From a bacterium (GTDB lineage Bacteria; Electryoneota; Electryoneia; Electryoneales; Electryoneaceae), in assembly GCA_963669175.1 (NCBI GenBank), contig OY769902.1:1152001-1216000 (forward strand): DNA of 64,000 nt. Reading direction: 5' to 3'. This document shows, one piece after another, positions 39,168 through 57,100 of the stretch. The stretch's first letter is position 1, and each line of letters opens with the position of its first letter. The notes beneath the pieces were generated by a model. It saw nothing but the letters and a program-made list of their open reading frames with translations. It was not told where the DNA came from and did not search any database. The translations under genes were made by a program, and so were the position numbers.

Positions 39168-42100
39168 ATGTGCGGAAAATGGACATGTTCCCTGGCTTGC
39201 CTTCTCTTTCTATTGGCAGGTTCAGCAGGATTCCTTGGGTGTGAAGATGCTGTAGAGGAGCTTCTTCCATCGCTGGAAATTGAGGCCCCGGGTAATGGGG
39301 ACCATTGGGAGGCGGGCTTGGACAGCAGCGGGGTTATCCGTTGGCAATACTCCGAGTTTGCAGGCAGCGTTCATATCGATCTGTACCGCAATGATGTATA
39401 CGTTCAGACCATTGCAGATTCCGTAAACATTTCCGATACCATCCTGATTTGGACACCTCCGTTCAACCTTGAAGCCGGGCAGGGGTACCAGGTATTCCTG
39501 GAAGCTTATACCAACGCTGAAGTATCTGATTTGAGCGATGCGTTTCATATGGATGCCCCCAGAAATCCGCCCGCTATTGAAGTGACTTCACCGCGTGGCG
39601 GCACCAAGTGGGAAGTCGGGTTGGAAGATGACGCGTTGATTGAGTGGGAGTATCAGCTTGTTGAGGGACTGATCCGGATTGATTTGTGTCGTAGCGATAC
39701 CGTTGTCACCATGATCGCGGATAGTGTTGCGCTGGAGGACAGCAGCTACACCTGGACTGTTCCCCAGGCTACCGACCCCGGCAGCCAGTACCAGGTTTGC
39801 ATTACCAGCCTGACCGATTCCACTGTTTTTGATTTCAGCACCAATTTCCAGATCCAGGAATATGACAGCACACAATCACTGGAGATCGTCAGTCCTTCCG
39901 GCGGCGACCGTTGGATGGTTGGCCTGGTCAATGGCGCAACCGTCGAGTGGGAAAACCACCATGTAGATGGTACTGTTACCCTTGAGCTGCACAACGGCAA
40001 TGATTTTGTCGCCCTGATTGGGGATGAAATCGAAGCATCGGCCCTGATGTTCAGTTGGACCGTTCCGGAAGAGGTTGAGCCTGGAAACGGTTATCGGATC
40101 TATATCGAGTCCAACGACAACCCGGATATCAATCATACAGGTCACAACTTCCAGATTGAACCGTATGATGACACGCCCATGCTGGAAGTCACCAGCCCCG
40201 GGCAGGGCGATAGCTGGCAGGTTGGTGTTGAAGATGGCGCCCCGATCGAATGGGCCTATGCGAACGTAACCGGAACAATCAAGGTAGAACTGTACCTGCA
40301 TAACGATTTCGTGCAGACGATTCTTGATACTATCCCGGTGGATTCCGGCGGTTATAGCTGGACTGTTCCCGGCGATATCGAGCCGGGGCATGGGTATCGT
40401 GTGTACGTGGAAAGTCATGACAACCCGGATGTGAACAACCTTGGCAGCAACTTCGAGATTGAACCCTATGGAAGTACCAGTTCCATCGAAGTTACCGAAC
40501 CCGGTTCGGGAACACGCTGGCCCCAGGTGGAGCCTGATGCCGCTGTCATCGAATGGGTCTACGAAAACCTGAACGGAACTGTCAACATCGACCTGTATTT
40601 CGACGGTGAGTTTGTCCTGAATATCGCGGATGAGGTTGCGGTTGATGAGCTTACCTATGCCTGGACAGTGCCGTTGAGTGTCAGCCCGGATCGAGGCTAC
40701 CAAGTCTATATCGAGAGCAACGAGGATGAATACGTCTCCGATATGGGCCGTGAGTTCCGGATTGATCCGCCTGCGGATGAAATGAGCCTGGATGTCACTG
40801 AACCCGGTGGCGGAACACGCTGGATGATTGGAGAAGAGAATGGCGCGATCATTGAATGGGAATCGGAGAACCTTGAAGGCACACTTCGTCTGGACCTGTA
40901 CGACCGTGATGGTTTCGTCGCCGAAATCGCATCGGAAGTGGATGTGACTTCCGGTACTTATTTCTGGACTGTACCAGGTACAGTACCGCCGGACAACGGA
41001 TACACAGTATATGCCGAAAGCAACCTGTACGATTACGTCAACGATGAAAGCAACAGCTTCCGTATTGACCCACCGGAAGATCCCGCGACCCTGGAAATTG
41101 CCAGCCCGGGACAGGGCGATACCTGGATCATTGGCGAAGAAAACGGCGCAGTCATCGAGTGGACTTCTGAAAACCTGACCGGGACACTCAAGTTTGATCT
41201 TTACCGTGCGAACAGCTTTGTCGTGACGATTACCGATTGTGTGGCTGTGGAAGCGGGGAGCTTCACCTGGACCGTGCCGAACAGCGTGGATGATGCCAAC
41301 AATTACCATATCTATGCTGAAAGCAACGAGCTGGCCTACGTCAATTGTGAAAGCCGCAATTTCCGTATCGATCCCAACCCGAACCCGATGGAGATCGAGG
41401 TGACCACTCCCGGCCCGGGCGACCGCTGGACTGTCAACGAGCAGGACGGCGCGTTGATCGAGTGGGAATACTCGGGCTTTGAAGGCACGGTGACCATTGA
41501 CCTGTACCAGGATGATGTCTTCGTCATGAACATCGCTACCGCGGTGCAGGTTGCAGATCTGAGTTACACCTGGACTGTACCCACGGCAGCGGGCAGCGGG
41601 CAGCATTTTGCCGTGTACGTGGCAAGTGATACGGAACCGGATGTTCACGACTTCAGCCGTGAATTCCGTATCGATCCGGCCGACGAGGACTGGGAGATCG
41701 AAGTCACGGCTCCCGGCCAGGGCGACAGTTGGTTGGTTGGTGAAGAAGGGGCCATTACCTGGACCTACGCAAATGTAACCGGGACTATATCGATAGACCT
41801 GTATCTCCACAATGGGTATGTACGTGATATCGTGGATGGGGTAAATGTTGCCAACGGCAGTTATACCTGGACCATGCCATTGGAGGTAGAGCCCTCCAAC
41901 GGTTATCGCATTTACATCATATGTGATGACAACGCTGAAGTGGATGACCTTGGCAGCAACTTCACTGTGGTTGGGGATGATGAACCAGGCGAGCTGGAAG
42001 TTACCGGACCGGGTCAGGGCGATGAGTGGGTAGTTGGTGAGGATGGTCAGATTACCTGGACCGCGCTGAATGTGGACGGCACCATTCACCTCGAACTCTA

Positions 42101-43175
42101 CCTGCATAACAGCTACCAGATGGATATAGCCGATGGCATAGACGCGAATGCTGGCGCATACACCTGGATCATGCCGGAAGAGGTTGAACCCGGTAATGGC
42201 TATCGCATTTACATCGAATCCGATGACGATGCCGATGTGAATGATCTGGGCGATAACTTCACCGTGGTCGGTGGAAACGAACCAGGCGAGCTGGAGGTTA
42301 CCGGACCGGGTCAGGGCGATGAGTGGGTAGTTGGTGAGGATGGTCAGATTACCTGGACCGCATTGAATGTGGACGGCACCATTCACCTCGAACTCTACCT
42401 GCATAACAGCTATGAAATGGATATCGCCAGCGGTGTGAATGCCGATGCGGGATCGTATACCTGGATCATGCCGGAAGAGGTTGAACCCGGTAATGGCTAT
42501 CGCATTTACATCGAATCCGATGACGATGCCGATGTGAATGATCTGGGCGATAACTTCACCGTGGTCGGTGGATACGAACCGGGCGAGCTGGAGGTTACCG
42601 GACCGGGTCAGGGCGATGAGTGGGTAGTTGGTGAGGATGGTCAGATTACCTGGACCGCGCTGAATGTGGACGGCACCATTCACCTCGAACTCTACCTGCA
42701 TAACAGCTATGAAATGGATATCGCCAGCGGTGTGAATGCCGATGCGGGATCGTATACCTGGATCATGCCGGAAGAGGTTGAACCCGGCAACGGTTATCGT
42801 ATTTACATCGAATCCGATGACGATGCCGATGTGAATGACCTGGGTGATAACTTCACCGTGGTCGCGGGTGGTGGCGGTGGGCCGACCAGCATCGAGGTGA
42901 CCAGTCCTTCCAACAACGACCATTGGTCCATCGGCGGTACGTATACCATCGAATGGGAATCGGAAGACCCGGTCGGTACGGTGCGTATCGACCTGTACCA
43001 TATCAACACGTTCGAGATGAGCATCACCGATGATATTGACATGGTAAACGGGCAGTACCAGTGGACCATTCCCGAGAATGCCCCGACGGGGAATGGGTAT
43101 CGGATTTACATCGAAAGCAATGTTGATCCAGACGTCAACGACCAGAGCAGCAACTTCTGGATCGATGAAGAATAG
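39168..43175 (+). CDS. Surface lipoprotein with 13 tandem ~100-aa Ig-like (Kre9/GPI-anchored-family-like) repeats
   Basis: Lipobox FLGC; repeated P.GG..W..G....I.W...IDLY...YTWTVP...Y.IY...D.S..F. Confidence 0.8.
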   Translation: MCGKWTCSLACLLFLLAGSAGFLGCEDAVEELLPSLEIEAPGNGDHWEAGLDSSGVIRWQYSEFAGSVHIDLYRNDVYVQTIADSVNISDTILIWTPPFNLEAGQGYQVFLEAYTNAEVSDLSDAFHMDAPRNPPAIEVTSPRGGTKWEVGLEDDALIEWEYQLVEGLIRIDLCRSDTVVTMIADSVALEDSSYTWTVPQATDPGSQYQVCITSLTDSTVFDFSTNFQIQEYDSTQSLEIVSPSGGDRWMVGLVNGATVEWENHHVDGTVTLELHNGNDFVALIGDEIEASALMFSWTVPEEVEPGNGYRIYIESNDNPDINHTGHNFQIEPYDDTPMLEVTSPGQGDSWQVGVEDGAPIEWAYANVTGTIKVELYLHNDFVQTILDTIPVDSGGYSWTVPGDIEPGHGYRVYVESHDNPDVNNLGSNFEIEPYGSTSSIEVTEPGSGTRWPQVEPDAAVIEWVYENLNGTVNIDLYFDGEFVLNIADEVAVDELTYAWTVPLSVSPDRGYQVYIESNEDEYVSDMGREFRIDPPADEMSLDVTEPGGGTRWMIGEENGAIIEWESENLEGTLRLDLYDRDGFVAEIASEVDVTSGTYFWTVPGTVPPDNGYTVYAESNLYDYVNDESNSFRIDPPEDPATLEIASPGQGDTWIIGEENGAVIEWTSENLTGTLKFDLYRANSFVVTITDCVAVEAGSFTWTVPNSVDDANNYHIYAESNELAYVNCESRNFRIDPNPNPMEIEVTTPGPGDRWTVNEQDGALIEWEYSGFEGTVTIDLYQDDVFVMNIATAVQVADLSYTWTVPTAAGSGQHFAVYVASDTEPDVHDFSREFRIDPADEDWEIEVTAPGQGDSWLVGEEGAITWTYANVTGTISIDLYLHNGYVRDIVDGVNVANGSYTWTMPLEVEPSNGYRIYIICDDNAEVDDLGSNFTVVGDDEPGELEVTGPGQGDEWVVGEDGQITWTALNVDGTIHLELYLHNSYQMDIADGIDANAGAYTWIMPEEVEPGNGYRIYIESDDDADVNDLGDNFTVVGGNEPGELEVTGPGQGDEWVVGEDGQITWTALNVDGTIHLELYLHNSYEMDIASGVNADAGSYTWIMPEEVEPGNGYRIYIESDDDADVNDLGDNFTVVGGYEPGELEVTGPGQGDEWVVGEDGQITWTALNVDGTIHLELYLHNSYEMDIASGVNADAGSYTWIMPEEVEPGNGYRIYIESDDDADVNDLGDNFTVVAGGGGGPTSIEVTSPSNNDHWSIGGTYTIEWESEDPVGTVRIDLYHINTFEMSITDDIDMVNGQYQWTIPENAPTGNGYRIYIESNVDPDVNDQSSNFWIDEE
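41982..42865 (+). repeat. Three near-identical 297-bp intragenic tandem repeats
   Basis: Units start at 41982, 42279 and 42576. Confidence 0.9.
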
Positions 43176-43215: not shown

Positions 43216-43460
43216 CTGGGTGGCCCAATCCGCAAGTGACAAATTCTCGATCACAACTGAACCTGGAATACTCTAAAGAAATCGCAAAACAGGACGAATC
43301 TGTGAGCGCATCGGTACAAGTCTGGTCCTGGGAGCTTCAACAGGAAGATTCAACCTTTTCCCGATGCGCTAATTAATGTTGATTGAATAAGAGATGTCGT
43401 GAGAGTATTCTTGCTGACTCCAAAGCTGAAGTTGCATCACCTGCGGATCGGGCCACCCAG
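43216..43460. repeat. Inverted pair of 24-bp repeats (family C)
   Basis: ctgggtggcccaatccgcaagtga 43216-43239 / tcacctgcggatcgggccacccag 43437-43460; single copies at 2827-2849 and 5173-5196. Confidence 0.65.
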
Positions 43461-43550
43461 CTTTCTTTACGTTTTTTACCTTTTTTACTTTCTTTACCTC
43501 TATCACTTACTATTAGGAAATATTTCCGGTAGGTTTTCAGTTGATAGTGG

Positions 43551-44381
43551 TTACTTTTTCTTGTCCTTTTTCGTTGTATCTTTTTGTTTATCTTTAGGTT
43601 TAAGGTCAGGATGATACTGCATCACCAGTTTCTGATATTGGACCACTGTACTACGTCCGAGTCCGGTAGTACGCACAATTTCCATCAGATTAAGTTCTTT
43701 GACCATCAGGAACTTGATGTTTTTGTAAGATCGCAAGTAACGACCCACCGCTTCAAGGGTATGCGTGGTCAAGCGAGCGATATCCGGTTCCGGATAGCCC
43801 TGTTCGTACAGGTCAATGATTGCGGCCTTGTGTGTGGGACGGCTTCCCTGGTCCAACATGATTCCTTTCGTCGGCAGGATGTCATCATGCGTTTCGTGAT
43901 ACTGTTGGATGTACTTGCCAATGGTCGTCAGCGACCGGTTCAACAACACACTCAATTCCGCGCCGCTTAATAACCCGCCTTGTTCGTACGCGCTTTTCAC
44001 CAACCGCGCCAGCACTGCAATATCCCTGTCGCGCTGTTTGCCCGCACCGTCTTTTCCATAGTGGCGACGAATACGATCAACCACATCTTCTTCAGTGACA
44101 AGCGGAAGAATGACGGTCTTCACCTCATAGTCTTCTACCCGTGTCCCATAGCTGGGCTTGTGGCACTGTGCACCTGTCGTACGCCACACAATACTGCCAC
44201 CGCTGCGTTGCTCGATATCCGGATAGAACTCACGGTGCAGTTGCATGATGTCATCCGCCACCATGGCCAAGACCTTGTGGCTGCCAAGAATCTTGTACTG
44301 CTCTTCCAACAACCGGATGATCGCAGTGCGAAAGTTCCGCTTCGGCAGGGATTCATAACGGTTCCGTACCTCAGTTTTCAT
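43551..44381 (-). CDS. DUF1670-like protein B
   Basis: AYEQGGLLS..ELS.LL; PTKG..D.G..PTHK..II.LY..G; THT..AV.RY; ATG 44381 with GGAGG RBS. Confidence 0.8.
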   Translation of the reverse strand: MKTEVRNRYESLPKRNFRTAIIRLLEEQYKILGSHKVLAMVADDIMQLHREFYPDIEQRSGGSIVWRTTGAQCHKPSYGTRVEDYEVKTVILPLVTEEDVVDRIRRHYGKDGAGKQRDRDIAVLARLVKSAYEQGGLLSGAELSVLLNRSLTTIGKYIQQYHETHDDILPTKGIMLDQGSRPTHKAAIIDLYEQGYPEPDIARLTTHTLEAVGRYLRSYKNIKFLMVKELNLMEIVRTTGLGRSTVVQYQKLVMQYHPDLKPKDKQKDTTKKDKKK

Positions 44382-45204
44382 GGACGCCTCCGCCACCTTG
44401 TCCCGCTCTTTTTTTTGAGGGATACTGTGCTTGCAACTGCTCCAGAAGTTCGACATAGCTTGTCGGCCAGTGATCACCCTGTTTGTATTTTGCAAACAGA
44501 TCCAGGTACTCACCCGTCAACCGTTCGCTCTGTTGAAGCAGACGGCTCAGGTCGGTCAGCTCGGTAATGTCATGGCTAAGCAGAAGCAACAAGCGTCCAA
44601 ACGTACTCACATAGCGCTTGATCGCAAACGCGCTGTGACGTGTCAGACGGATGATCTCATCATAGGTCCGGCCACCCAGGTACAAATCAACGATCCGTGC
44701 CTTGTGCGATAACCCACGCCCAATGTCATGGTCGTAGCCACGCGTATGCACCGTATTCCCGTCAGCAAGCAGCAACGCAATATCCTTGCGGATGGTCCGA
44801 TCTGAAACGTGCAGCAGACGACTCAGATCCTCCTGTGTCAGCAACCCACCCTGCTGGTACGTCTCTTCGGTTAGCCGAAGAATCCGTTGCTGACGAAGCG
44901 ATGAAGCGCCCAGTTCGCGCAGAACATCCAAGTCCTCAACACCGTCATCCAGTGTCAGTTCGACACGAATCAGGTCTTGTTCGCGTAAGGGACGACCGTG
45001 ACGAGCTTTCTTGGACGCACATAAAAAACGAAGCTTGCCAAGCGTTGACGGCATCGTACCGAACAAACAACGCTTGGCAAGCTCCAATATCCCCGTACTC
45101 GCAGCCGGTGAAAGCTCAAACTCGCGACGAAGCGAGTTCACAAACACCTGCTCCGGCGTCTTCTCCATACACCGGTCATACAGGCTCGTTGAAGTATGTA
45201 ACAT
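44371..45204 (-). CDS. DUF1670-like protein A
   Basis: TYQQGGLLTQEDL; TRG..HDIGRGLSHK..IV.LY; TRHS..AI.RY; ATG 45204 with GGAGG RBS. Confidence 0.8.
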   Translation of the reverse strand: MLHTSTSLYDRCMEKTPEQVFVNSLRREFELSPAASTGILELAKRCLFGTMPSTLGKLRFLCASKKARHGRPLREQDLIRVELTLDDGVEDLDVLRELGASSLRQQRILRLTEETYQQGGLLTQEDLSRLLHVSDRTIRKDIALLLADGNTVHTRGYDHDIGRGLSHKARIVDLYLGGRTYDEIIRLTRHSAFAIKRYVSTFGRLLLLLSHDITELTDLSRLLQQSERLTGEYLDLFAKYKQGDHWPTSYVELLEQLQAQYPSKKRAGQGGGGVHEN

Positions 45205-45303
45205 CTTGTCCTCCAGCATGTTACGCGATCGCTTCCGATTGCCAACCCGAATACAAAGGTCGCAAACAAGAAGCAAATCGCCAAACCTACCGGAAGTATT
45301 TCC

Positions 45304-48300
45304 TTATTTCAGGAGTACCATTCTACGGGTCAAGCTGACATTTTCTCCTTCCAATCGTACAAAATATGTCCCCGAGGCGACCGGCATACCCTGATCGTTA
45401 CATCCCTGCCACATGACCTGTTGTTGCCCCGCCTGTACAACGCCATCCACCAGTGTAGCTACTTTCCGTCCCAGTACATCATAGACCGCAAGGCTGATCT
45501 CGCCGGTATGGGGCGCGGAAAAGCGAAGTGTCGTCGCCGGGTTAAACGGGTTGGGATACGCGGAATGCAGTTCCCAGGTTGCTGGAAGTGTGTTCTCTGC
45601 CAGGGACGCAACCCGTTCATAATTGTCATTGTAGCGCATGGCATAGACATTGGCTTGCGTGGGTTCTTCGCCATCACCGCCACGATAGTCCAGCCAAGTC
45701 GCAAGGACACCGCCCTGACCATCGGAAGTGACAGAGGGTTCCTTCTGACGGTAGATCGCATTTGTCAAAACCATCCCATGTTCTACATAATCGGCAAGAG
45801 CAAGGGTGCCGTCAGACAGAATATGGGTGTAATACATGTCCACGTCACCGGGCATATAACTGTAAAAGCAGAATGTGATATACATGCCATTGTCGTCATC
45901 TTCACAGAAGCGTGGCGTGTATACTCCGGAATAGATGGACGTGTCAACCGGTGTGGGAATAACCACGCCTTCATTCGGGAAGAATATTGGCAGTCCGCTA
46001 TCATCAAATTTCTGGAATCGCAGGTTGTTGTCCTCGTCCCTGCCTGTCAGCCAGATCCAGCCATCCGACGTTGATCCCAGGTCCAGGTCAGTCCAGCCAT
46101 AGCTCATCCAGCCGGTATACACGCCATAGGTATCCCACTGACAAATGCCATCCATGTTCACACGTTGCGCCATAAGATCGGCCGGCCCACTTTCCGACCA
46201 GGATTGCAGCCACATGACCACGACGCCATCGTTGACCGCAGCCATACGAGCGCCAGGCATTCTGAGGTCTTCATCATATACGTTTAACGGATTTGGCCAC
46301 AGCGGATTGCCTTCGGTATCCAGGGCAAGGAGATGAAATCCACGGTTTTCCCGTTCGATATCTTCCTGCATGAACAGGATAAAAGTTTCGCCATCGGGCA
46401 TCACCAGGATCTGTTGCAGTTCCATTCCGGCTTGTTCCCGCTCGAAAGAAAAGCCTTCCGTTCCGTTCCAGAGTCGCTGCCCTTCAGTGGTGATGCGTTG
46501 AGCCTGGATTGTTCCGGTATTGTTCATATTCGTGTTGTTGAACACGTATACCACGACGGCATCACCGTTCGGCATCGGAGCAACTTTAACTTGGTCTGCT
46601 TCAAAGGGTTGCTGCAACGGATCAATCAGGACAATATCATCGTTCCAGGCAGCATTGCCGTCTTCATACATGCGCTGAATGTGCAACCTGTTCACAATAT
46701 TCGGATAGGGCTGATTGTAGGTAAATACGGAATAGACACCTCCTATGTGGTCAGGCGCTATTCCCAGCAATTCACCATACCACCCCGATTCGGCTTCCAG
46801 GTCCGGCAGGGACTGAGTCGAAACATGGTTACCGTTGTCCTCCCACAGGTATTCTCCCGTTTCCATATCCAGCCGTTGCAGTAAAGGCCGGAAGAAGGCC
46901 GAAGACAGGTAACGGCTGTCGGTCCAGCCGATAAAAGCATTTTCACCAGACAAAACAATATCAGGCGCGTAGACATCCCCATCGATCCCGGTATGCAGGG
47001 AGTGCAAATCATTGTAAGCAGGTTCGCCAGTCGTGAGATCCAGGGACTGGAACCGAACTCCACAAGCTGCGGGATACTGGTCACGTAACACCAGTTTTAC
47101 GGTTCCATCAGCCACAACAGGCTGATAGGAATCAGTAGTCAGAATATTTCGTCCATTGCCATAATCGGTGTCATCGTTCAACCACATCTCTTCACCGTTG
47201 GCGTTGATACGCTCGAGAAGAATCCGGTCGTCCAGATCAGCATCCACGCGATCCGTATGGATACCCACGACTACGCCTCCGTCACCATCGTACGCCAGGT
47301 GGAAATTAGCCGGGTTGATGAAAATGTCATTGAATAGTGTGATCCCGTTTCTGTCGTTGCCCCAGCATAGTTCGGCAACGCCGTCAGCATCCCTGACTTT
47401 TTGCACGACATTGAGCAGTGTCGGGCCGACCTCATCATGGATACGTGCTAGGAAAAACTCATTTTCTCCGCCCGGGATAAGGTCAAATTCGAAATAATGC
47501 GGGTACATGGAATCAATGGTCTCAGAAACAGGCACACCGCCATATTCCCATACGTTGCTGCCATCCGTATCGATATGTTGAGCGCGTATCTCCAGGTCCG
47601 CCATGTCCTTCCAGACTATGAACATTCCCCCCAGACCATCCAGGGTCATGTAGAAATGATAAGCGTACAGGTTTTCCGGGAATGAATAGACAATGGTTCC
47701 GGGCCACAACTGAACCCCGGTTTCATTCCACTTATGCGCGAAGATGGTTCGAGACTGGAAATCCATAGAGACGCTTAAGATGGAGCCATCGTCATCCAAT
47801 GCGACCTTTGCATTGCCTAGTGCGTTTTCCAAGGCATAGCCACTTGCGCCCCAGGTGTAATTCCCCTGGTTGTCGATGTACTGCACGTATGTCTGACTTG
47901 CGGCTTCCCAGGCGAACATGGCGCCGTCATCATTGGTGCCGGTCATCTGCAGGTCCAATCCGGGCCATTGAGTGGTGTCCTGGGTTACGATCAAGCCGTT
48001 ATCTTCCCACATGGGTTCGCCGTTGCTATTCAAACGCTGAACCACAAAATCCCATCGTCCCTGCTTGTGGACATCCCGCCGGAAATCACGCCAGCCAATC
48101 AACCAGTCACCGTTAGCGCATGCCTGGACAACGGGGTCTTGCTGGGCGGCGTGGAGGGTGGTAACCGCGATGCCATCTGCGTCCCATTGCGCTTCATCGC
48201 TGCTGTTGTATAGCTGCACAAATACGTTCTGGGATCCACCGCTGGCATCCGACCATGCTACCAGCCAGTATCCATCACCGTCAGCCGCTACGCCATGATG

Positions 48301-48441
48301 ATTCCACATGACATGATCGCCCTGACGCACAGCCACTCCATTCTCAGGTTCCCAGATGTTGAAACGTGCAAAAGCGAGCGAAGTAAAGACCGCGGGCAGC
48401 AGTAGTGAAAAAAGGATGACAATATGTAACCGTGAACGCAT
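45304..48441 (-). CDS. Large secreted repeat (propeller-like) protein with T9SS/FlgD CTD, array member 1
   Basis: Signal peptide, DG.GG...W.D.R and Q..D..G...W repeats, YPNPFN CTD; final Lys-stop supplied by the element. Confidence 0.85.
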   Translation of the reverse strand: MRSRLHIVILFSLLLPAVFTSLAFARFNIWEPENGVAVRQGDHVMWNHHGVAADGDGYWLVAWSDASGGSQNVFVQLYNSSDEAQWDADGIAVTTLHAAQQDPVVQACANGDWLIGWRDFRRDVHKQGRWDFVVQRLNSNGEPMWEDNGLIVTQDTTQWPGLDLQMTGTNDDGAMFAWEAASQTYVQYIDNQGNYTWGASGYALENALGNAKVALDDDGSILSVSMDFQSRTIFAHKWNETGVQLWPGTIVYSFPENLYAYHFYMTLDGLGGMFIVWKDMADLEIRAQHIDTDGSNVWEYGGVPVSETIDSMYPHYFEFDLIPGGENEFFLARIHDEVGPTLLNVVQKVRDADGVAELCWGNDRNGITLFNDIFINPANFHLAYDGDGGVVVGIHTDRVDADLDDRILLERINANGEEMWLNDDTDYGNGRNILTTDSYQPVVADGTVKLVLRDQYPAACGVRFQSLDLTTGEPAYNDLHSLHTGIDGDVYAPDIVLSGENAFIGWTDSRYLSSAFFRPLLQRLDMETGEYLWEDNGNHVSTQSLPDLEAESGWYGELLGIAPDHIGGVYSVFTYNQPYPNIVNRLHIQRMYEDGNAAWNDDIVLIDPLQQPFEADQVKVAPMPNGDAVVVYVFNNTNMNNTGTIQAQRITTEGQRLWNGTEGFSFEREQAGMELQQILVMPDGETFILFMQEDIERENRGFHLLALDTEGNPLWPNPLNVYDEDLRMPGARMAAVNDGVVVMWLQSWSESGPADLMAQRVNMDGICQWDTYGVYTGWMSYGWTDLDLGSTSDGWIWLTGRDEDNNLRFQKFDDSGLPIFFPNEGVVIPTPVDTSIYSGVYTPRFCEDDDNGMYITFCFYSYMPGDVDMYYTHILSDGTLALADYVEHGMVLTNAIYRQKEPSVTSDGQGGVLATWLDYRGGDGEEPTQANVYAMRYNDNYERVASLAENTLPATWELHSAYPNPFNPATTLRFSAPHTGEISLAVYDVLGRKVATLVDGVVQAGQQQVMWQGCNDQGMPVASGTYFVRLEGENVSLTRRMVLLK

Positions 48442-52243: not shown

Positions 52244-52410
52244 GTCCGACTCCTTCGGTTGAAAATCATTAAAGTGACTGATGAAAACAATCAATACGTT
52301 GTGAATCGCCCGACCTTCCCCGCCATAACAGGAGGGAAGGTCGGGTAACAATTGTCTGACATCTATTTACTATTAGGAAATATTTCCGGTAGGTTTTCAG
52401 TTGATAGTGG

Positions 52411-53241
52411 TTACTTTTTCTTGTCCTTTTTCGTTGTATCTTTTTGTTTATCTTTAGGTTTAAGGTCAGGATGATACTGCATCACCAGTTTCTGATATTG
52501 GACCACTGTACTACGTCCGAGTCCGGTAGTACGCACAATTTCCATCAGATTAAGTTCTTTGACCATCAGGAACTTGATGTTTTTGTAAGATCGCAAGTAA
52601 CGACCCACCGCTTCAAGGGTATGCGTGGTCAAGCGAGCGATATCCGGTTCCGGATAGCCCTGTTCGTACAGGTCAATGATTGCGGCCTTGTGTGTGGGAC
52701 GGCTCCCCTGGTCCAACATGATTCCTTTCGTCGGCAGGATGTCATCATGCGTTTCGTGATACTGTTGGATGTACTTGCCAATGGTCGTCAGCGACCGGTT
52801 CAACAACACACTCAATTCCGCGCCGCTTAATAACCCGCCTTGTTCGTACGCGCTTTTCACCAACCGCGCCAGCACTGCAATATCCCTGTCGCGCTGTTTG
52901 CACGCACCGTCTTTTCCATAGTGGCGACGAATACGATCAACCACATCTTCTTCTGTGACAAGCGGAAGAATGACGGTCTTCACCTCATAGTCTTCTACCC
53001 GTGTCCCATAGCTGGGCTTGTGGCACTGTGCACCTGTCGTACGCCACACAATACTGCCACCGCTGCGTTGCTCGATATCCGGATAGAACTCACGGTGCAG
53101 TTGCATGATGTCATCCGCCACCATGGCCAAGACCTTGTGGCTGCCAAGAATCTTGTACTGCTCTTCCAACAACCGGATGATCGCAGTGCGAAAGTTCCGC
53201 TTCGGCAGGGATTCATAACGGTTCCGTACCTCAGTTTTCAT
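52411..53241 (-). CDS. DUF1670-like protein B
   Basis: Same as 43551-44381 except GAGK>GACK. Confidence 0.8.
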   Translation of the reverse strand: MKTEVRNRYESLPKRNFRTAIIRLLEEQYKILGSHKVLAMVADDIMQLHREFYPDIEQRSGGSIVWRTTGAQCHKPSYGTRVEDYEVKTVILPLVTEEDVVDRIRRHYGKDGACKQRDRDIAVLARLVKSAYEQGGLLSGAELSVLLNRSLTTIGKYIQQYHETHDDILPTKGIMLDQGSRPTHKAAIIDLYEQGYPEPDIARLTTHTLEAVGRYLRSYKNIKFLMVKELNLMEIVRTTGLGRSTVVQYQKLVMQYHPDLKPKDKQKDTTKKDKKK

Positions 53242-54064
53242 GGACGCCTCCGCCACCTTGTCCCGCTCTTTTTTTTGAGGGATACTGTGCTTGCAACTGC
53301 TCCAGAAGTTCGACATAGCTTGTCGGCCAGTGATCACCCTGTTTGTATTTTGCAAACAGATCCAGGTACTCACCCGTCAACCGTTCGCTCTGTTGAAGCA
53401 GACGGCTCAGGTCGGTCAGCTCGGTAATGTCATGGCTAAGCAGAAGCAACAAGCGTCCAAACGTACTCACATAGCGCTTGATCGCAAACGCGCTGTGACG
53501 TGTCAGACGGATGATCTCATCATAGGTCCGGCCACCCAGGTACAAATCAACGATCCGTGCCTTGTGCGATAACCCACGCCCAATGTCATGGTCGTAGCCA
53601 CGCGTATGCACCGTATTCCCGTCAGCAAGCAGCAACGCAATATCCTTGCGGATGGTCCGATCTGAAACGTGCAGCAGACGACTCAGATCCTCCTGTGTCA
53701 GCAACCCACCCTGCTGGTACGTCTCTTCGGTTAGCCGAAGAATCCGTTGCTGACGAAGCGATGAAGCGCCCAGTTCGCGCAGAACATCCAAGTCCTCAAC
53801 ACCGTCATCCAGTGTCAGTTCGACACGAATCAGGTCTTGTTCGCGTAAGGGACGACCGTGACGAGCTTTCTTGGACGCACATAAAAAACGAAGCTTGCCA
53901 AGCGTTGACGGCATCGTACCGAACAAACAACGCTTGGCAAGCTCCAATATCCCCGTACTCGCAGCCGGTGAAAGCTCAAACTCGCGACGAAGCGAGTTCA
54001 CAAACACCTGCTCCGGCGTCTTCTCCATACACCGGTCATACAGGCTCGTTGAAGTATGTAACAT
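53231..54064 (-). CDS. DUF1670-like protein A
   Basis: Identical translation to copy 1. Confidence 0.8.
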   Translation of the reverse strand: MLHTSTSLYDRCMEKTPEQVFVNSLRREFELSPAASTGILELAKRCLFGTMPSTLGKLRFLCASKKARHGRPLREQDLIRVELTLDDGVEDLDVLRELGASSLRQQRILRLTEETYQQGGLLTQEDLSRLLHVSDRTIRKDIALLLADGNTVHTRGYDHDIGRGLSHKARIVDLYLGGRTYDEIIRLTRHSAFAIKRYVSTFGRLLLLLSHDITELTDLSRLLQQSERLTGEYLDLFAKYKQGDHWPTSYVELLEQLQAQYPSKKRAGQGGGGVHEN

Positions 54065-54163
54065 CTTGTCCTCCAGCATGTTACGCGATCGCTTCCGATT
54101 GCCAACCCGAATACAAAGGTCGCAAACAAGAAGCAAATCGCCAAACCTACCGGAAGTATTTCC

Positions 54164-57100
54164 TTATTTCAACAATACCATCTTGCTGGTCAGGTTGACA
54201 CCATCGCTTTCAAGGCGTACAAAATAAGTTCCCGACGCTACCGGCATCCCCTGGTCGCTGTGCCCCTGCCAGATCACCTGCTGCCGTCCCGCCTGAACCA
54301 CACCATCGACAAGCGTCGCAACCTTACGTCCCAGTACATCATAGACCGACAGGGTCACTTCGGACGTGCGTGGCGCGGTGAAACTCAATGTGGTTGACGG
54401 GTTGAACGGGTTGGGATAGGCGCCATGCAGTTCCCAGGAAACCGGGTGCAGGTTTTCACGGGGTTCGTTGGCGCCGTATGGGTATTCATAGATGCGCATG
54501 GCATAAACATCATCCCCCTCATCTTCGATATTCATGCCACGGTAGTCGGTCCAGGAAACCAGCGCGCCTCCTTCGCCATCCGGAATCGCAAAAAGCTCTT
54601 CCTGTACGAACATCGCATCGGTCAGGATCAGGCCGCCCTCCTCGTAGTACGGGTCGAAAAGATCACCGTCCGCATTGATATGCGAGAAGCCAAGATTGCT
54701 GTAATCACAATCTGAAAGAATCTGGTAAAACACAAAGAAACCGTTGTTCCCATCCGGCACAGTATAAAGTGTATTGTATTCCTTGACAACATCGTTGTAC
54801 GCTGTTGGCAGTAAAATCCCATGCTCCACATCGTACAGCGGTTCTCCCTGGGCGTTGAATTTCTGATAACGCGGGCTTCTGTATCGTTCCTCATCCTGTC
54901 GGTCCAGCCAGGCAATCCAGAAAGTGTTATCCTCATTGATCACAACGGTTTCATCAATAAAAACGGGTAAAGCATTCATACAGGAAATGATTTCACGGCC
55001 ATTGGTGTCCCAGAGAATAGAGCCGTCGGCAGCATCAACCAACTGGCCGTAAAGGCACATGCGGTCTTCCGTGAGCCACAATACAAGAATATCGTCACCC
55101 AGTTGACGAACGACAGGCGCATAGGATCGTGGCATCATCCCGTCAGTTACCTGCGCACGTGGAGTTTCCCAGATCGCTTCGCCTTCCTCGTCCAGGAGGG
55201 TCAGGTAAACCAGATCCCTGTTCTGGAAAAGAACACCATAATTGTTGTTGTCCAGCAGCACAGCGCCCTTCAGAACGTAACTTTCCGCGGTCAGACTGCT
55301 TCCATCCTCGCCCCACAGCAGCTCACCAGTCTGGCTGATACGGTTGCAGGCGACAACACCGTTCCCACGACGCACCCAGGAGACATAGTAACAGCCATTT
55401 GAGCCGCGAAGGAACTGATATTTGTTTTGGGTTTTTGAACGGAAGAACGTCTGCTCGCTGGTTGTCAGGCAGGTAGGGGAGTCCCAGACCGGTTCCAGCT
55501 CGCTGTCGTAGGTCTGGATAAATACTTCATAGGGGTCGCCATAACCTCCATCTCGACGCAGGGTAAGCAGTGCGAAGCCACCATCCTCCGTGCCAAGCGC
55601 CTGGAAATTATTCATTCCCCAGGCCACTCCTTCATAGGAAATAGCCAACGGTACGCCATGATCCTCAAACAGGGTTTCGCCAGTCTGGATGTCAAGTTTC
55701 TGGAAATACACATCAGACGAGTCTCGAAAATCTACCCACCCGATCAGGACATCATCCTGGGATTTTAGAACCTGGGAGAGCCTTCCGTTGTTCATAATAC
55801 CGCTAACCAGGGGATAGGGCTGTTCAAAAACCGATTCCCCGGAAGCCAACTCGAGCTGTTGGAATTGAACACCAATCCCATCACCGGAAGAATACACTCC
55901 CGGCCAGAAAAGGCGCACATAGTCGTCAAGTTCGAAAAGATCAAAAGCGTATGGGCAGGGAAGACCATCAATTTCAAACTGTACCGGGCTGCCATCGTTC
56001 CAGAGGCTGACGCCCTGATCACTGAAACGCATGGCCAGGATTGCGCTACCTGAATACTTGCCGTAGGAATTCGAAGTGGCGAGTATGAAACCATCTTCGC
56101 CATCCGGGAAAAGCCTCACACAGTAAAACACCATGTTTTCGTCGGGGAAAACTCTGAACTGGCAGATATCATCCTGCTCTTCCTGGTCTGAAGAGTAATC
56201 AAACAGTCTCATCTGGAGGTTATAGCCATCATCGTTTGCCTGTGGCCATGCCAGGGCGCAGACCCCGTCATGGAGATGGCATAACCGGAAGAAATCATCA
56301 TTGGAAATGTAGTTGCACGGTGCAGAGAGCTGGACACATTCTTCCCACAACGGTTCACCTTCAGCACTGATATATTGCCCGAAAATACCATCGCGCTCTT
56401 CACAGAGCCAGACCAGGCAATACCCGTTCTGGTCATCCTTTACCAGCTCCATATCCGTTGAATTCATCTCCTCTTCAGGGCAAAGCGCGATGGGTTGGCC
56501 GTCGTTCCATTGTGCTTCACCATTCCCATCATACAATTGGATCTCAACAGGTGTGCCCGTTGCGATCATAAAAGTACCATCATCATTCACGATAGCATTG
56601 ATGGCTTCTCTGTATTCTGTCACAGCTAACGGCTCATCCCAACACGGATTGCCGTCATGGTCAAACTTTTCGATATAGTTTCCCGTAACAGACTCCCAGA
56701 CAACGAGAGTAGCTTGATCCGGCATCGGTAGAAACGTATTTAAAAACGTCCAGGACACACCATCCGGGTTCAGCAAAACTCCGTTTTCCTGCCACAAAGC
56801 TTCGCCTTCTGATGACAATCGTTGAAGCGCGAAATTGATCAATGATGCATTCCCATTATTCCGGTACTCCTCCCATGCCACCAGCCATTCACCATCACCG
56901 GCATAACGGATCATGGGTTGTTGCTGTGGGGTGGGCAAATCGGTGAGTTGTATACCGCCTTCCGTCCACTGCTGCTCGTTGGCGGAGTTGTATAGCTGGA
57001 CATACACATTTTGAGCGCCCTCTTTTCCGTCCGACCAGGCAGCCAGCCAGGAGCCGGAATCGTCTGTGGCAGCTCCGCCGCCTGTCCAGGTAAAATGGTT

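Follow-up and report, generated by a model that had tools for sequence, protein, structure and literature searches.

A two-gene DUF1670 element in the last sense codon of type IX secretion cargo genes, most likely a widespread new insertion-sequence family

To our knowledge, the known transposases and site-specific recombinases fall into few chemical classes (DDE, DEDD, HUH, serine, tyrosine and Cas1). IS630 and Tc1-mariner elements encode DDE transposases with bipartite helix-turn-helix (HTH) regions, have inverted ends and produce a 2-bp duplication (TA), and Tn7 uses five proteins to enter one site (attTn7) per genome. Tyrosine recombinases carry the signature R...K...HxxR...H/W...Y in that order, and in XerD, lambda Int and Cre the H-to-Y distance is 9-10; some members of the class work as paralogous pairs, and some elements borrow XerC/D from the host. 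The termini of IS607 and its target both carry GG, from which a 2-bp exchange was deduced; the element lacks terminal inverted repeats and shows little target selectivity (PMC6188088). Here we describe a 64,000-nt stretch of DNA (the window; contig OY769902.1, positions 1,152,001 to 1,216,000 of the forward strand, assembly GCA_963669175.1) from a bacterium of the Electryoneaceae, in which two DUF1670 (PF07900) genes, orfA and orfB, are the only genes of a repeated element. A preliminary description of this DNA had taken the two products, A and B, for a heteromeric, highly divergent tyrosine recombinase. The element most likely represents a widespread new insertion-sequence family, and it was placed in the last Lys or Arg codon of genes for cargo of the type IX secretion system (T9SS).

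The genome contained 16 PF07900 matches, forming eight A/B pairs. Seven of these lay in 1803-nt units that differed from each other at 0-5 positions (6 variable sites in all, by BLAST and end alignment), and the eighth copy was diverged, with ~71-73% nucleotide identity. Two copies were located in the window (Table 1). Copy 1 was flanked by the same dinucleotide on both sides (43507-43508 and 45308-45309), TT on the plus strand and AA in element orientation, and a contig from the public runs was exactly 1803 nt long (43507..45309) and ended exactly at both element boundaries. The inverted arms (43512-43536 and 45283-45307) were 25 nt long and 92% complementary, and both ends had a palindromic core, GGAA-N4-TTCC, beside GGTAGG. 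The end core occurred 4 times in the window, against 0.01 expected; genome-wide it was found only at the 16 ends of the 8 units, besides 6 hits with one mismatch. A and B occupied 1654 of the 1799 bp. Non-coding DNA came to 42 nt on the orfB side and 103 nt on the orfA side, so the earlier statement that under 100 bp is non-coding at either end was right for the former and slightly too low for the latter. No credible RNA emerged from an Rfam scan of the element, the two matches, of 24.5 and 20.8 bits, falling short of their gathering scores of 60. Searches of PHROGs and PADLOC returned weak regulator/WYL-HTH matches for A only and none for B, tblastn against plasmids returned no match, and the promoter/terminator scan was no better than shuffles. 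The unit is short, has inverted ends, near-identical copies and a short flanking duplication, and carries only mobility genes, as which A and B would serve; it is an insertion sequence in all these respects.

The element had entered the final Lys/Arg codon of a gene with a T9SS type-A sorting domain, between bases 2 and 3, and lay in the orientation of that gene. Base 3 of the codon and a TAA stop came from the element, so that the final K or R was preserved; at copy 1, the stop codon (45304-45306) and the last base of the final Lys codon of the target gene were element DNA. The left flank of all seven copies was the 3' end of a gene whose product ended in ...LLK or similar, followed by A-TAA-GGAA..., and the right end read ...TTCC-TAATAGT, then AA, then G-TGA, A-TAG or G-TAG. 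When the element and one AA were removed, the Lys codon and the original stop were rebuilt in 7/7 copies (TGA twice, TAG five times), and the diverged eighth copy had the same target pattern. Copy 2 adjoined another T9SS sorting-domain gene (stop at 54164-54166; TIGR04183, 40.8 bits). Paralogous unoccupied gene ends were seen near copy 2 at about 57353 and 63718. The End-1 junction motif was also present in 27 of 28 loci from other genomes; 24 of these followed an open reading frame with a hydrophobic tail and K/R, two were cut by the contig start, and one (L038) had no such reading frame. All ten tails that were tested for TIGR04183 scored 29.7-50.2 bits, above the cut-off of 23 bits. At least 150 T9SS sorting domains were present in the genome (150 scored of 340 candidates), and 8 were occupied by the element.

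The flanking dinucleotide was identical at both junctions in 32 of the 33 pairs compared (29 AA, 2 AG and 1 CG); the exception was L040 (CG versus AG), and the eighth copy, L022 and L042 were left out of the comparison. The 4 nt following the dinucleotide were element-type ATAA at End-1 in 33/33 pairs and target-type at End-2 in 20/20 events where target and element differ, showing that the exchange was one-sided. This pattern fits an exchange or duplication that covers 2 nt, and not the 6-8-bp overlap of tyrosine recombinases. Since close relatives sit at AA, AG and CG, the junction sequences favour duplication of the target's own dinucleotide over a fixed crossover dinucleotide. Insertion would recreate a usable target, which may explain the neighbouring or nested elements in L023, L025, L026 and L039.

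Table 1. Coordinates of the element, its genes and its target in the window
Feature	Position	Strand	Description
DUF1670 element copy 1	43509..45307	minus	1799 bp; bounds from alignment of 7 genomic copies
DUF1670 element copy 2	52369..54167 (unit 52367-54169)	minus	differs from copy 1 at 3 bases
End-1 (orfA side)	45283..45307	minus	inward: A-TAA-GGAAATACTTCC-GGTAGG; gives third base of target codon and TAA stop
End-2 (orfB side)	43509..43536	minus	CCTACC-GGAAATATTTCC-TAATAGT; 12-nt core is a perfect palindrome
orfA	44371..45204	minus	A-type DUF1670 protein, 277 aa; start MLHTS; GGAGG 5 nt upstream
orfB	43551..44381	minus	B-type DUF1670 protein, 276 aa; start MKTEV; GGAGG upstream
Target gene of copy 1	45304..48441	minus	1045-aa protein with T9SS type-A sorting domain (TIGR04183, 38.9 bits)
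Leader hairpin	45210..45296	minus	predicted pairing of End-1 core with orfA Shine-Dalgarno; dG -41.4 kcal/mol, z -4.2

Placement in the last Lys/Arg codon of T9SS genes, the 2-nt flanks and the one-sided exchange point are new here. The element is like IS607 in its small size, its HTH DNA-binding part and the identical flanking dinucleotide that is also found at the target. However, IS607 TnpA has a resolvase catalytic domain, whereas no such Pfam domain and two proteins were found here, together with 25-nt inverted repeats, a highly specific target and AA/AG/CG sites. Inverted ends, a 2-bp duplication and HTH_23/HTH_28/HTH_29-like regions are shared with IS630/Tc1-mariner, but no DDE/RNase H-like domain was recognised, each model had two beta-strands, and the sites were AA/AG/CG and not TA. 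With its inverted repeats and the 2-nt repeat at its flanks, the element is reminiscent of a transposase or of a serine-recombinase-type exchange. Exchange across an identical 2-bp core, as a serine recombinase would give, was seen in the 32 matching junction pairs; the resolvase catalytic domain with its N-terminal Ser was not recognised, PF00239 not being among the Pfam hits at E<=1. Nor was the RNase H-like domain (D, D, E/D triad) of a DDE transposase such as that of IS630, as the Pfam and NCBIfam hits included no DDE family and the models had only a two-strand hairpin; an IS21 transposase match reached 12.8 bits against a cut-off of 160. Like Tn7 at attTn7, the element uses a 'safe-harbour' just past a conserved gene end and leaves the gene intact, but it does so with two small proteins, and its target class counts at least 150 members in the genome. 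With tyrosine recombinases (XerC/D, integrases, RIT) it has in common that insertion is site-specific, that the subunits are paralogous and that the ends, joined on paper, form inverted arms around an AT-rich spacer.

At E<=1e-3, orfB had 1628 relatives and orfA 469, mostly on contigs of 1-2.5 kb, and the full scan gave 749 clusters at 50% identity. The closest relatives were in metagenome-assembled genomes labelled Ignavibacteria, Bacteroidota, KSB1, Marinimicrobia, Caldithrix, Lentisphaeria and Fibrobacteres; of 41 related genomes, 2 had PF07900. One subfamily had diverged to 25-30% identity with orfB; it comprised 232 metagenome relatives, from which 80 loci were kept, and its elements also had inverted ends with a palindromic core. 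The A-then-B order was observed in 24/28 closer loci and 62/80 divergent loci, most of the others being cut by contig ends. The smallest relatives had ~1.69-1.70 kb between the inverted repeats and contained A and B only, and A-B fusions of ~530-546 aa kept the same A-then-B order. Palindromic cores varied by subfamily (GGAAATATTTCC, GGCCATATGACC, GGTCAGGTGACC, TGCCATTTGGCA and GCGAATTCGC) and the protein motif stayed invariant. The outermost end bases (ACTATTAGG... and ...CCTTAT + TT) recurred in several subfamilies with differing cores. Longer proteins included a ~420-437-aa group, whose extra N-terminal part duplicates the B-type N-domain (hhalign probability 97.8), and three-module DUF1670 proteins of ~930-950 aa; Pfam found only DUF1670 and HTH families in 10/10 long forms. 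In the three-module proteins (P0147, P0149, P0157 and P0158), module 1 was without the [ST]H...H...Y motif, module 2 kept it without the Lys, and module 3 kept it whole. Literature searches, which covered papers without their supplements, found no mention of DUF1670 or PF07900 and nothing related on type IX secretion with insertion sequences at stop codons.

Some arrangements in other genomes were observed besides. In L023, the element's right end was directly followed by the left end of a DUF1670 element from a different subfamily. A solo left-end-like remnant stood directly after the right end in L025 and L039, and a second divergent A/B pair did so in L026. The A-B pair was flipped relative to the two end types in L052-L065 and related metagenome loci, and flanks of the L052-L065 type resembled the element's own end sequence and not a T9SS gene end.

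The start of orfB overlapped the stop of orfA. Both proteins matched PF07900 (orfA, E 2.3e-45, 155.1 bits; orfB, E 1.4e-48, 165.6 bits) far above its curated cut-off of 25 bits, and they were paralogues with 33% identity over 132 aa (E 2e-13). Pfam matches at E<=1 were confined to DUF1670, HTH families (mostly below cut-off), TPR_9, DnaJ and KORA. HTH_23, HTH_28 and HTH_29 were sub-threshold matches in both A and B, and HTH_7, the resolvase HTH, was a weak DNA-binding-domain match (17 bits against a cut-off of 23.8). The motif strings picked out earlier (LSHKAR, PTHKAA, IIRLTRHSAFAIKRY and IARLTTHTLEAVGRY) were present in the translations of the two proteins. Among 83 diverse B-type proteins, H184 and Y215 were conserved in 83/83, H207 in 82/83, G179 and Y249 in 81, R126 in 80, K185 in 80/83 and D177 in 78; R214 directly preceded Y215 in 67/83. 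The residues R104, R110, D126, T137, D141, R155, D160, G162, H167, H190, Y198, F202 and S226 were invariant in 55 A-type proteins, and R155, D160, G162, H167, H190 and Y198 were the counterparts of the B-type conserved patch. Conservation of H and Y across DUF1670, which the preliminary description had proposed to check, was borne out, both being essentially invariant in these 83 B-type and 55 A-type relatives. Two parts made up the patch: P-x-[KR]-G...D-x-G...[ST]-H-K, where the second HTH begins, and H-[ST]...R-Y, in the turn and third helix of that HTH; the order of conserved residues was R126...R/K172...D177-x-G...[ST]183-H184-K185...H207...R214-Y215.

AlphaFold models built on diverse alignments had a mean predicted local distance difference test score (pLDDT) of 89.7 for orfB and 81.6 for orfA. 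Both followed one plan, in which 2-3 helices and a beta-hairpin precede a helix, a long helix and a winged HTH, and a linker leads to two three-helix HTHs; in sum, a small helix/beta-hairpin domain and three HTH units. The His/Tyr motif lay inside one three-helix HTH of ~45 residues, and the only two-strand hairpin was far from it. By HTH geometry, H184 at the beginning of helix 1 would be near H207 in the turn, both of them close to the DNA backbone. Foldseek searches of the PDB with both models gave 0 hits at E<=1e-3, the N-terminal domains being barely tested. Apart from one weak integrase row (Tn1549 integrase, rank 30, E 0.72, TMq 0.18), no tyrosine, serine, DDE or HUH enzyme was among the listed fold matches. 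In the protein atlas, residues 1-112 of orfB had no usable match and whole orfB matched only HTH_23-type clusters, at 0.77-0.81. Judged from the relatives, the motif is functional and not needed for the fold, because the three-module proteins lost it in module 1 only and because it is invariant while the palindromic cores change between subfamilies.

Precedents exist for an active site embedded in an HTH-type domain. The active site of topoisomerase V lies in an HTH. In type IIA topoisomerases the nucleophilic Tyr is in a winged-helix domain (PMC7614492). A catalytic Tyr in A or B would be like these in its setting; unlike topoisomerases that need the Toprim metal domain, however, A and B showed none. 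The winged-helix domain of Topo VI-A aligned with the first HTH of both proteins (B, Z 6.0, root-mean-square deviation (rmsd) 2.0, 62 aligned; A, Z 5.8, rmsd 2.7, 62 aligned). These matches reflect ordinary HTH likeness and do not cover the second HTH, which bears the motif.

We lean towards the explanation that this is an autonomous, site-specific insertion sequence of an undescribed family, whose recombination machinery is formed by the paralogous multi-HTH proteins A and B. A recombination role for them is plausible because the element encodes nothing else, and the kept A-then-B order, the fusions in the same order and a complex prediction that passed weakly suggest that A and B probably act together. 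To this extent the idea of a heteromeric recombinase stood, and its assignment to the tyrosine recombinases was unsupported. In the proposed mechanism, A and B would bind the palindromic cores as a hetero-oligomer, pairing the two ends, with strands then exchanged or joined at a 2-nt stagger. The active site would be built from the D-x-G...[ST]-H-K...H...R-Y patch, invariant in the family, which lies in the second HTH and ahead of it, with water/3'-OH, Ser/Thr or Tyr as the candidate nucleophile. Tentatively, and with less assurance, DUF1670 could be a new transposase/recombinase class, with an HTH-embedded His-His-Asp/Lys/Tyr site, an A/B hetero-oligomer and a staggered 2-nt exchange, and with the last sense codon of T9SS cargo genes as its target, which would let the host gene survive every insertion.

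Several results weigh against this explanation. No known transposase or recombinase catalytic domain was found by sequence (Pfam, NCBIfam, and PDB sequence and profile searches). The best VIA-align matches were to HTH and winged-HTH domains only (orfB, Z 6.8, rmsd 4.6, 64 aligned; orfA, Z 6.5, rmsd 1.6, 56 aligned); the wide search gave no Z>=8, its best values were within the range that the tool calls common, and the N-terminal domains were again barely tested. When the designed HTH repeat 8vd6 was aligned, H207 and Y215 fell on standard hydrophobic core positions of the HTH, and their invariance could be structural or due to DNA binding. The A-B complex prediction scored 0.35 (median of 3 runs) against 0.11 for the best control, a weak pass; the runs agreed in at least 48% of contacts with a partner pLDDT of at least 65. 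Of 80 solved complexes 58 attained this mark, as did 2 of 110 mismatched pairs, and a score of at most 0.60 was obtained for 7 of those 80 complexes and for both mismatches that passed. No circle junction, excision product or empty site was present in the reads or contigs of the public runs, and the search for an orthologous empty site in 4 related genomes gave only sorting-domain stretches of ~70% identity. Movement is therefore read from the copies and was not observed directly. There is also some chance, though a low one, that a host enzyme does the chemistry.

In the main rival, A and B are DNA-binding proteins only, and cutting and joining fall to an enzyme of the host that they recruit (a recombinase, a topoisomerase, or a nuclease together with repair), much as in elements that borrow XerC/D; we consider this unlikely but worth weighing. 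Both models are tandem HTHs with small extra domains, all structure matches are DNA-binding domains, and the invariant His and Tyr occupy standard HTH positions; the outermost end bases (ACTATTAGG.. and ..CCTTAT) that recur despite differing cores could be a host-factor site. However, the family is spread across many labelled phyla and metagenome lineages, so that the partner would need to be universal, and by eye the ends appear to bear no likeness to a known host recombinase site. Moreover, both paralogues retain the motif and its loss is confined to extra modules, as would suit an active role.

It is improbable that the element is non-autonomous, with A and B as passenger regulators and an unlinked transposase acting in trans. 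No catalytic fold was recognised, as such passengers would have it, and the presence of PF07900 in just 2/41 related genomes makes co-occurrence uninformative on a partner gene. Yet the A/B pair and the end architecture travel together at 25-30% protein identity, and the cores change alongside the proteins. Contigs of ~1.8-2.5 kb, from public runs and metagenomes, contain nothing but the unit, and an end-core pattern search of this genome found no short derivatives without the A/B genes.

The reading of A and B as a heteromeric, highly diverged tyrosine recombinase, with Y215/Y198 as nucleophile and an attP-like circle junction, is very improbable. In its favour are the invariant H and Y, R214 before Y215 in most B-type proteins, the weak Tn1549 integrase row, the paralogous pairs known in that class, and the ends, which when joined on paper do form, as described earlier, inverted arms (21 nt) around an AT-rich spacer (TAATAGT + ATAA, 11 nt; 13 nt when one flanking AA copy is included). 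The reading fails because the sequence signature, residue order, domain context and overlap length are not those of the class. PF00589 was absent at E<=1 in Pfam, and the PDB sequence and profile searches returned no recombinase. The HxxR box was lacking, with [ST]-H-K conserved instead, and the H-to-Y spacing, said earlier to be the same as in tyrosine recombinases, was 8 here against 9-10. The motif was contained within one 3-helix HTH, with H207 and Y215 aligned to the core of the designed HTH. Had a mismatched overlap of 6-8 bp been exchanged, each junction would be expected to show the one or the other parental version, but the exchange mapped to 2 nt and was one-sided in all 20 informative events. 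Two findings had been named in advance as speaking against this reading, a fold of only tandem HTHs with no clustered R/H/Y site and a non-conserved Tyr; the outcome was mixed, as the AlphaFold models gave tandem HTHs, which counts against the reading, and the Tyr was invariant, which does not. Least credible of all is that the pair is a fixed, non-mobile regulatory module of T9SS cargo genes: it always stands directly after such a gene in the same orientation, but near-identical units with inverted ends follow unrelated cargo genes, no more than 8 of the sorting-domain genes, at least 150 in number, are occupied, 39 of the 41 relatives searched lack the family, and divergent subfamilies occur in other contexts.

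The autonomous insertion sequence that we favour may also restrain its own expression. A predicted hairpin (Table 1) lay within the 103-nt leader, and its 9-pair stem was kept in 19 leaders from this and other genomes; the stem pairs were almost invariant, and covariation support was thin (1/9 pairs). The hairpin would mask the orfA ribosome-binding site, so that read-through transcripts of the target gene are predicted to yield no A or B protein. Such a block is proposed because the element is always downstream of, and co-oriented with, its target gene. In IS10 and IS50, fold-back inhibits translation from transcripts that enter from outside. The first gene's ribosome-binding site is paired with an end sequence there as well, although in our element the pairing is predicted only.

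Other features were seen around copy 1. A ~245 bp repeat (43216-43460) was bounded by 24-nt inverted repeats (43216-43239 and 43437-43460), had a dozen or more diverged genomic copies by BLAST and may be MITE-like (a miniature inverted-repeat transposable element); it was followed by four copies of a 9-bp tandem repeat (43461-43506). A gene for a 1335-aa protein with many tandem ~95-residue modules (39168-43175) lay on the far side of copy 1, and the window was rich in large, repeat-rich secreted proteins with T9SS tails. A joint at 43488->45290, which skips 1801 nt and was found in contigs from two runs of one sample, was set aside as a likely repeat artefact; it was 19 nt off the element boundaries and had only 22 letters on one side.

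The element is compact, abundant and evidently active, and none of the known classes was recognised in its two proteins. If A and B carry the chemistry, they would constitute a further enzyme class, in two proteins of ~275 residues. Their protein-guided targeting would be unusually fine, within one codon, with codon and stop both repaired, which makes the element of interest as a scar-free, gene-sparing insertion tool. The findings give DUF1670, a Pfam domain of unknown function, its first functional context, and the element marks how mobile DNA exploits T9SS cargo genes.

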